This document shows, piece after piece, positions 9,901 through 12,900 of a stretch of 64,000 nt of DNA. The notes beneath the pieces were generated by a model. The model did not search any database. It saw nothing but the letters and a program-made list of their open reading frames with translations, and had not been told where the DNA came from. Made by a program: the position numbers and the translations under genes. The first letter of the stretch is position 1; each line of letters starts with the position of its first letter. This stretch comes from Pecten maximus. Its lineage: Eukaryota. The stretch spans positions 40,982,001-41,046,000 of the forward strand of contig NC_047017.1 in the NCBI RefSeq assembly GCF_902652985.1, in the 5' to 3' direction.

Positions 9901-12900
9901 TCCTGCATCTTGGCCAGAATTACCATCCCGTACCACAATTCCATCACAGAGATCACAGACAGCATCCGATACTAGTCCTACTACGCCACCACCGACCACT
10001 AAGCCTTCCTACCTTTCTGTACTGATTTCCGTGCCACCGACAGCAATTCCTCCTGTAGAACCCGGTACTACTACGCCAGTACCCGATACCACTACGCCAG
10101 TACCAGATACTACCACGCCAGCACCCGATACTACTACGCCAGTACCAGATACTACTACGCCAGTACCTGATACTACTACGCCAGTACCCGATACTACTAC
10201 GCCAGTACCAGATACTACTACGCCAGTTCCCGATACCACTACGCCAGTACCAGATACTACTACGCCAGTACCAGATACTACTACGCCAGTACCAGATACT
10301 ACTACGCCAGTACCCGATACCACTACGCCAGTACCAGATACTACCACGCCAGCACCCGATACTACTACGCCAGTACCAGATACTACTACGCCAGTACCCG
10401 ATACTACTACGCCAGTACCCGATACTACTACGCCAGTACCAGATACTACTACGCCAGTTCCCGATACCACTACGCCAGTTCCCGATACCACTACGCCAGT
10501 ACCAGATACTACTACGCCAGTACCAGATACTACTACGCCAGTACCCGATACCACTACGCCAGTACCAGATACTACTACGCCAGTACCCGATACCACTACG
10601 CCAGTACCAGATACTACCACGCCAGTACCCGATACTACTACGCAAGCACCGCCGCCTACTAAACTGAGCAGACGTCAGAGAAAAAATAGAAGAAGGAAAT
10701 CTAAGACCACTACCACACAGTCAGCATTCGATACTACCACGCCAGTACCCGATACTACCACGCCAGTACCCGATACTACCACGCCAGCACCCGATACTAC
10801 CACGCCAGCACCCGATACTACCACGCCAGCACCCGATACTACCACGCCAGTACCCGATACTACCACGCCAGCACCCGATACTACCACGCCAGTACCCGAT
10901 ACTACCACGCCAGCATCCGATGCTACTCCTACCACACCAGAACTCGATACGACACAGACAGCATCCGATACTAGACTACAGGATTCCTTTGCAGGTATAC
11001 AGATAGGTGGTGGAGGGGAGGGGGGAACGTTATCTTACCGTAGTGTTGTTTATTCTTCCGGCTTAAAGACATTTTTGGAAAGCGACGTAATATTTTCTAT
11101 TCTTTCTAACCCTGATAAGGATAAAGATAAATTGTCAGATGTTACAACATTAAAACCCAAGGGAGGGGAGACGTTTTTGATAACCGACAACGGAGATGTC
11201 TGTAGAACTGATGACTGGTCATGTGATGGGTATTTTTGGGTTAATAAGGGTGGTCATGGAATTCCTAAAGCAAATCCAAAAATGTGGAAACGTACTTATT
11301 ACATAAGTGAAGGGAAGGGCGATACTAAAGGTTCCAAAAACTTTCAGCGTAGAATGTATATGATGAAGAAGGGGACTGTTACTTACAGGTTTATTCAGTA
11401 CATAGGTGATGAGACTATTTTTGTCCCTAGGGTCCACGGGAATGGCACAGATGGGAACGATTATAGGAGGACTTTTCCATCTGTTTTAAAGCAGGTTAAA
11501 TCAGTTAGTTCTAGTGATAGCAATCCGTCATCGGTGTTTAAGAGGAATCAAACAGAGCAACAAGTTAAGGGTAGCTTACAGGGTAGGGCTAATCTTAGGT
11601 CCCCTTCTCAAGTTAGGTATCAGTTAAGGCTAGCAAGGAATGAGAAACGTCTTAGCCATGATGAGTTGTACAGTACTTTAGAGCTTATGTATCACTTAGA
11701 TGGTTATATTCATGATTTTGCTATAGGTCCAGATCTTAGGTGTGTTTTAGGTGTTCAGGAATTATTGAGCGAGTTAAATTTATTATTACAAGTTGAATCT
11801 GACGAGAAGTTGTACATGTCGTATGACACAACCTTTCAAGTAGGAGATTTTTATGTTTCAGCTTTAGTATTTAGACATGTTTTATTTCAAAATAATAAAA
11901 CCATTCCTGTAGCTTTTTTCATTCATGATAAGAAATCTACTAGGATTCACGAATTTTTTTGGTGGTGTATCAAGTCTCTTATTCCTAATTTATCGAAGGG
12001 TAGTCATGTCATTGTTGTAGACAGGGAATTAGCCATAAAAAATGCCATAGAAGACGTTTTTCCTGATTGTATGAGACGTCATCTTGTTGAATGCATTTCA
12101 AATGGTAGATTTTCAAAATTTCCAAGGAAAAAAATTCAGTAAATATAGGAAAAAGAAGAATTCTCAAACTTTATCCTTTGATATTTTTATGGATTGTGAA
12201 TCCGAGGGATGTCACCTTTCTAATGTATTTGACGATATGGTCACTTGTGACGCTGGCTGTAACAGATGGTTTCATAATAGATGTGTCAGTGATAAGTCAG
12301 GTTTACATTTTTCAAGGGATAGTTTTGTTTGGCATTGCAGTAAATGTTCCTAGGCAAGTAGGTAGGTACAGTGTAGGTAGGTAGGTAGGTAGGTAGGTTA
12401 GGTTAGGTTAGGTTAGGTTAGGTTAGGTTAGGTAGGTTAGGTAGGTTAGGTTAGATTAGGTAGGTAGGTCGTAGGTAGGTAGGCAGGTAGGTAAAACAAA
12501 TGGGCTCTTTGTAGAACTGCGTCCTCGTCGCAGAGCTCGGTAACATTCTTTATAGGATGGCTGAAGGTTCTACACATTTTAGATAAAGACATTAACATTC
12601 ATAAGACAGGTTGCCATATAACATCTGGTATATGTATACAGACAATACACGCTACTCATAAACCAGTAGTCCTAGCACGGTGGATCGGGAGTAGTCTGCC
12701 CTTGGTACGGGACCGGGCGTAAACAAAAACCCCCGTGATCATCGCCGCGATCTCAAAAAAGGCAAGATTTGAAATGAAATAAGTAGTATTTGTAATCAAA
12801 ACTTATATTTGTATCAACAACTAGGTTTACTTGAAGTATGGAATCGAAAATATCATAAAAATAAACCCTTGTTTACGAATAAACAGCCAAAAACCGTAAT

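Follow-up and report, generated by a model that had tools for sequence, protein, structure and literature searches.

The locus described here raises the question of whether a cut-and-paste DNA transposon may encode a polyprotein that its own protease divides in two. The window, meaning the whole stretch of DNA that was analysed, is 64,000 nucleotides in length and comes from Pecten maximus. The element within it is a 5,344-bp Mutator-like DNA transposon; its 506-bp TIRs show 100% complementarity, and its 9-bp TSD is perfect. The main open frame of this copy (8849-12142, 1097 codons) encodes, in order, an SGNH esterase, a repeat stalk, a di-glycine (GG), a CG-1 DNA-binding domain, and the beginning of a MULE transposase. 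The di-glycine is conserved in the one long protein of a Mutator-like clade, and the sequence comparisons, structural models, and viral analogy presented below suggest that the C48 protease at the C-terminus of that protein probably cuts after it. The features of the window copy are as follows.

7795..7803, no strand: left 9-bp TSD, the same 9 bases on both flanks
7804..8309, + strand: left TIR, 506 bp, 100% complementary to the right arm
8987..9520, + strand: SGNH/GDSL esterase domain (PF13472, E 2e-6, below the curated cut-off), with Ser, Asp, and His catalytic motifs present
9530..10980, + strand: Thr/Pro tandem-repeat stalk, in frame, with 18-bp and 21-bp units and a basic patch
11000..11014, + strand: conserved x-x-G-G-(G/A/S) site, putatively cleaved, with the cut predicted after base 11011
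11072..11404, + strand: CG-1 (WRKY/GCM/NAC-like) DNA-binding domain (PF03859, E 3e-6, above cut-off)
11816..12063, + strand: initial portion of the MULE transposase core (PF10551, E 1.4e-7), interrupted by a deletion
12063..12064, + strand: junction left by an internal deletion of 1,901 bp, from comparison with L021 and L022
12065..12124, + strand: leftover tail of the C48 (Ulp1-fold) protease, matching the end of the L021 C48 region
12195..12350, + strand: PHD finger, not in the main ORF frame in this copy (PF00628, E 5e-4 in L021; PHD fold matches)
12358..12493, + strand: TAGG-type microsatellite before the right TIR, with 4-5-bp units; strictly speaking, no minisatellite
12642..13147, - strand: right TIR, complementary to the left arm
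13148..13156, no strand: right 9-bp TSD, the same 9 bases as the left flank

The element can be placed in the Mutator/MULE superfamily by its long TIRs, its 9-bp TSD, and a PF10551 match above cut-off in both the window copy (truncated) and copy L022. Among the nine copies with both ends, the TSD is a perfect 9 bp in eight and imperfect in one. The left TIR has at least about 40 near-full-length matches in genome G000. Each TIR contains two copies of an internal 21-bp sub-repeat, located in the left arm at 7811-7831 and 8017-8037, and this sub-repeat is a candidate transposase binding site. Short deletion derivatives that share the TIR are numerous (L006-L011, L030-L034), and RNA-like contigs show several different deletion joints. 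Long minisatellite arrays are also present elsewhere in the window (34-3966, 40001-41613, 43761-45119, and 58104-60261).

The esterase of the window copy has an Atlas value of 0.95 to GDSL clusters, and its nearest PDB sequence is 4c1b (E 0.007). The CG-1 model has a pLDDT of about 90 from residue 40 onward, with weak fold matches to WOPR, NAC, and WRKY (best E 0.002). The database gene model P0014, which carries the label Pecten maximus in its source, is 100% identical over 69% of the query. In P0014 and locus L023 (G000:C16), the gene model fuses an element copy to a Mind bomb-like gene (MIB_HERC2, ZZ, ankyrin, and RING). This fusion is probably an annotation chimera and possibly an exonised insertion.

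Relative to the sister copy L021, the window copy is missing 1,901 bp at position 12063, a segment that encoded the remainder of MULE, the SWIM region, and the portion of C48 with the catalytic residues. The first-pass annotation had read the motif [18 protein letters not shown] as the tail of a Ulp1-like protease lying just before a PHD finger, and had suggested full-length copies as the place to look for the protease itself. The motif is indeed the end of a C48 domain, and the same residues close the Peptidase_C48 match of L021. The PHD finger is also present after it, but lies in another frame in the window copy. L021 and L022 carry the remainder of MULE, a SWIM-like Cys/His stretch, C48, and the PHD finger, and in L021 the catalytic His, Asp, Gln, and Cys are present. 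Peptidase_C48 was matched in L021 (E 1.5e-9), L022 (E 3e-4), and also L026.

Contigs from three of four RNA runs have loose ends at the deletion junction that continue as in the longer copies; within the contigs of these four runs, none spans the GG site. The reading frame of the stalk is intact in two of three copies, and no unbroken full ORF was found among the G000 copies read. Single-ORF, full-length examples with leader, GG, MULE, and C48 are P0016 (1932 aa) and P0193 (1814 aa).

The C48 model of L021 (pLDDT 90) is closest in fold to SENP3, SENP5, and Ulp1, at Z 13-14 (rmsd 2.8-3.4 over 161-166 aligned residues). The viral proteases I7L, ASFV pS273R, and adenovirus protease follow at Z 11.4, 10.5, and 9.1. 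The Ulp1 fold and the order His-Trp, Asp, Gln, Cys are found in sister copies and relatives and are deleted in the window copy. All six C48 rows tied to GG families contain the His, Asp, Gln, and Cys. These six form one branch of the C48 tree (support 0.81) with a common hairpin insertion, which is also found in some relatives with short predicted N-termini. In the L021 clade, this hairpin contains a conserved Trp-x-Tyr and replaces the region before the catalytic core of SENP-like relatives; it is a candidate specificity determinant.

Four of the six GG-family domains have Lys where the first Trp of the Ulp1-type lid would stand. The lid Trp has a role in Ulp1-type proteases, and a Lys in its place may mean changed or lost activity. 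Leaderless relatives that have no site (P0006, P0017, P0010, and L028) keep an intact-looking C48, and the protease therefore has another or older job. In P0039, which may be a gene-model fusion, MULE, C48, and PHD share a chain with an N-terminus that resembles Gag matrix (PF01140, E 0.004).

The first-pass annotation had also proposed that a SUMO-like QIGG stands at the module boundary. The codons CAG ATA GGT GGT do begin at position 11000 (11000-11011) and are the sole QxGG in frame 8849-12142. The boundary was correctly placed, with the T/P repeat stalk upstream and CG-1 and then MULE downstream. Conservation of QxGG, put forward there as a check, holds in part, in that GG is kept at the boundary in families about 30-49% identical, but the Gln is present in only 2 of 14 sites. 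The Gln is considered incidental because this count does not depart from background (P 0.11). Since the Gln is not conserved and a low-complexity repeat, predicted to be disordered, precedes the site in place of a ubiquitin-like fold, the resemblance to SUMO is a coincidence. Taken literally as QxGG, the claim fails; corrected to x-GG followed by a small residue, it is much stronger than the first-pass annotation could have seen.

The motif alignment consists of 15 rows chosen for holding GG, with P0057 left out because its GG lies further upstream, and only the flanking tallies carry weight because the rows were selected for GG. The residue after GG is Gly, Ala, or Ser in 15 of 15 (12, 2, and 1, respectively) versus a background of 12.5%. 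At P4, two residues before GG, Leu is found in 7 of 14, Gln in 2, and Val in 2, with background frequencies of 8.9% for Leu and 4.1% for Gln. The third residue after GG is acidic in 10 of the 15 aligned sites.

Conservation of the site was assessed with a profile search of 1.84 billion representatives. GG was not a match column, and both the profile and the trees used columns downstream of it. The search set contains 170 sequences, 68 with the CG-1 anchor and 102 without. Five rows were removed before counting: P0014, P0015, and L025a as family duplicates, and P0085 and P0156 as tandem CG-1 only. The last two contain four to five tandem CG-1 domains and no MULE match, and P0059 and P0098 seem to have a second CG-1.

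Among the 16 proteins with a leader of at least 100 residues, 10 have a GG at a distance of 28-56 residues upstream of the CG-1 anchor, versus 83 of 1557 background windows (5.3%). The remaining 6 of these 16 long-leader proteins lack the site. In the same interval, GG is present in 2 of 7 leaders of 56-99 residues and in 2 of 15 leaders of 40-55 residues. It is present in 0 of 25 leaders shorter than 40 residues, where the interval is mostly missing. P values for the GG site overstate the evidence because the sites are related by descent, and they serve as a guide only. At the level of sequence, GG at this boundary exceeds chance across the family.

Carriers of GG for the most part cluster in trees computed from the alignment columns that follow the site. 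GG is present in 10 of 11 proteins within this clade versus 2 of 12 outside it when at least 56 residues precede the anchor, and in 11 of 15 versus 2 of 16 at 46 residues or more; the clade was drawn after the labels were seen and has weak to moderate support (aLRT 75.5, and 0.68 in another tree, with a third tree carrying no support values). In-clade members P0006, P0017, P0129, and P0098 lack the site at 46 residues or more. N-termini shorter than 46 residues were not counted as absences; database start calls may be wrong.

Two further cases were found after the pattern was set. The first is a third G000 family (L039-L044) with an esterase 37% identical and a different stalk, which ends in RQHGGG before a decayed CG-1 start. 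The second is L068, which by inspection is the sole metagenome locus with a long in-frame repeat stalk, and which is also the sole one with GG in the interval (KVGGG). The metagenome set contains 79 loci, with a CG-1 match in 71 and the anchor in 36 fragments. Most of the other anchor-bearing fragments, many of them from one assembly, have an in-frame Met no more than about 50 residues from the anchor. A second G000 search, with P0154, gave no new family with a CG-1 start, and a third homolog search, covering only 3382-5000 residues, returned nothing. Beside the element of the second family lies an open 1174-codon frame (L024:3-3524) with endonuclease, reverse transcriptase, and RNase H-like motifs recognized by eye.

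In the window copy there is no GG in the 667 residues before the site, and no further GG precedes it in 7 of the 10 GG-bearing leaders listed (P0057 and the short L027 fragment included). P0020 has the motif twice, and P0003 has nine extra GG, each followed by Pro. A second conserved GG between SWIM and C48, which would free the protease, was not found in the 10 sequences listed. Families vary in their stalk repeats and also in their cargo, which consists of SGNH, NADAR, or both. In P0005, P0185, P0193, and L068:1028-1903, a NADAR domain lies inside the repeat stalk, with or after an SGNH domain.

In the model that holds the site, pLDDT is below 50 over residues 5-30, motif included, and CG-1 starts about ten residues later. 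The 19 modelled residues before the motif also have low pLDDT, and the upstream stalk has no Pfam match. The site is thus predicted to be disordered, outside the CG-1 fold, and near the start of leaderless relatives. The spacing from GG to CG-1 varies by about 15 residues though the motif is kept. The first Met downstream of the site lies 64-164 residues on in four of ten families and at most 13 residues on in five. In the former four, internal initiation therefore cannot make the transposase.

Together, the domain architecture, catalytic residues left intact in sister copies and in relatives, and the conservation and position of the site point to probable cleavage, to the protease of the element as its likely agent, and to a predicted bond. 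C48 at the tail of the protein would cut after GG and would free the leader (esterase or NADAR plus stalk) from a CG-1-MULE-SWIM-C48-PHD transposase. The new N-terminus of the transposase would approximate that of the leaderless relatives. The bond is placed after the first two Gly because GG-Ala and GG-Ser variants occur. Since no ubiquitin-like fold precedes the site, the protease would recognise a short peptide rather than SUMO, roughly hydrophobic-Leu-x-Gly-Gly followed by Gly, Ala, or Ser, as adenovirus and ASFV proteases do. An LxGG preference is familiar from the adenovirus protease and from ubiquitin ends. The window copy would be processed only in trans because its own protease is lost. 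A point against self-cleavage is that the closest C48 folds are SUMO proteases and not viral peptide cutters. A complex prediction of the C48 domain with a 36-residue site scored 0.00, with alignments not used, and weighs neither for nor against cleavage.

The best-surviving alternative, considered unlikely but deserving weight, is that GG(G) stays uncut and serves as a flexible hinge or small binding motif, separating a bulky leader from the DNA-binding domain, with C48 acting as a deSUMOylase or deubiquitinase on host proteins. In favour of this alternative, GGG occurs more often than any other form (12 of 15), relatives that lack the site still have a C48, and the closest folds of that domain are SENP and Ulp1. 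A role for transposon Ulp1 on DNA-repair factors was proposed in the available text of Bao et al. (PMC2836005). However, two residues would add little to a hinge because the stalk is already long and disordered. The Leu enrichment at P4 and the strict small residue after GG fit a protease site, and the motif is retained while its spacing to CG-1 shifts.

Improbable, in turn, is cutting of the site by a host enzyme (a SENP, a deubiquitinase, or another GG-directed protease) while the C48 of the element does something else. The conservation data apply equally to this explanation, and the lid Lys in four of six clade C48 domains agrees with it. Host SENPs depend on a ubiquitin-like fold, and none precedes the site. 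SENP specificity is described as high in the portion of PMC9603560 consulted. The gathering of all GG-family C48 domains in one branch with a common hairpin insertion also argues for the protease of the element over a host enzyme.

A DNA or RNA signal that reads as Gly-Gly by accident, for example a splice acceptor, is very improbable. TAG followed by G is found in three of four families with DNA, and the three Gly codons are identical in three of four. In two of these families, however, most Gly codons are GGT (55-68%), L025 and L027 differ silently within the site, and an AG cannot come from the Tyr and Met found at P3. Residues substituted after GG remain small, and the stalk, as noted, stays in frame in two of three copies. 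That a Gly-rich linker resembles a SUMO end by chance has a negligible probability, for while the Gln is at background level, the frequency of GG in long leaders refutes chance for the di-glycine.

Cleavage of the site by the C48 of the element would, if true, give long-puzzling transposon proteases a testable job. Ulp1-type domains in Mutator, Ginger, and plant MULEs have long had no known substrate, and the GG site is a specific candidate substrate with a predicted bond. Polyprotein self-processing is familiar from viruses and LTR retroelements, and would here reach cut-and-paste DNA transposons as a way to carry swappable cargo domains with the transposase unhampered. Self-cleavage would control the timing of transposase release, and defective copies such as that in the window could be processed in trans.

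The broader proposal is a virus-style polyprotein in a widespread clade of animal cut-and-paste transposons. Swappable cargo (a lipid-binding-type esterase, NADAR, and a long stalk) would be released by a Ulp1-fold protease encoded by the transposon itself, the specificity of which would have shifted from SUMO to a short LxGG-type peptide. The chances for and against this proposal are judged to be even.

Ulp1-bearing Mutators are already known. Elements of the Mutator group in hydra, lancelet, and plants, and Ginger1, carry a C-terminal Ulp1 and PHD, for which action on host ubiquitin and SUMO pathways was proposed (Bao et al. 2010, PMC2836005). These elements share with the present one a transposase fused to Ulp1/C48 and a PHD finger. 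They differ in that, within the text available, "cleav" occurs 0 times and neither an N-terminal esterase/NADAR leader nor a GG site is mentioned. In the openly searchable literature, no report was found of a conserved GG site or of self-cleavage in these elements; the leader may already be described elsewhere, for instance in Repbase Reports or in Hoen 2006.

Rehavkus elements (Dupeyron et al. 2019, PMC6446971) share, as judged from the features described in Table 1, the 9-bp TSD, long TIRs, one ORF, a PHD finger, and, more loosely, a short-unit repeat before the 3' TIR, which is a minisatellite in Rehavkus and a 4-5-bp microsatellite here. The TSD, PHD, and repeat before the 3' TIR are also given in the accessible portion of PMC12581902. 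The TIR of Rehavkus is listed as 26-400 bp versus 506 bp here, a published range that is descriptive and drawn from few elements. Its hosts are arthropods and annelids versus a mollusc here, and "protease" and "peptidase" each occur 0 times in the text of PMC6446971 that was available. Protease and CG-1 are unmentioned in the corresponding portion of PMC13359780. The Cg-1 of PMC3169594 is a nematode gene, and that paper is not relevant.

The Kaonashi/VANC Ulp1-like genes of plant MULEs are likewise Mutator-borne Ulp1 domains, and the accessible text of a 2026 review still states their function as unknown (PMC13317346). They are separate genes in non-TIR plant elements, whereas the protease here is part of one fused ORF in animal TIR elements. 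The ZfL2-1 ORF1p esterase (PDB 4c1b; PMC3905857) is also an SGNH esterase of a mobile element, matched weakly in sequence as noted above. It is part of a retrotransposon ORF1 and binds lipids, whereas the predicted esterase here heads a DNA-transposon protein.

Ulp1/SENP enzymes have the closest folds and the same catalytic His-Asp-Gln-Cys, and small residues are preferred around their GG according to PMC9603560. The present system differs in the lack of a SUMO fold before the site, the unconserved Gln, the hairpin insertion, and the frequent Lys at the lid Trp. Autoprocessing by DUB-like domains is described for viruses, and not for DNA transposons, in the available portion of PMC3417536. ASFV pS273R, adenovirus protease, and poxvirus I7 share the clan CE fold, and their identity to the present C48 is low (7-14%); the likeness is in manner of working only. 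In ASFV, the SENP-like S273R cleaves polyproteins after Gly-Gly-Xaa, according to the text available from PMC4584293. The viral enzymes are stand-alone and mature virion proteins, whereas here the protease forms the C-terminal part of the site-bearing protein. By this analogy, the viral polyprotein would replace SUMO as the model for the element, and the alignments replace QxGG by x-GG-small as its motif.
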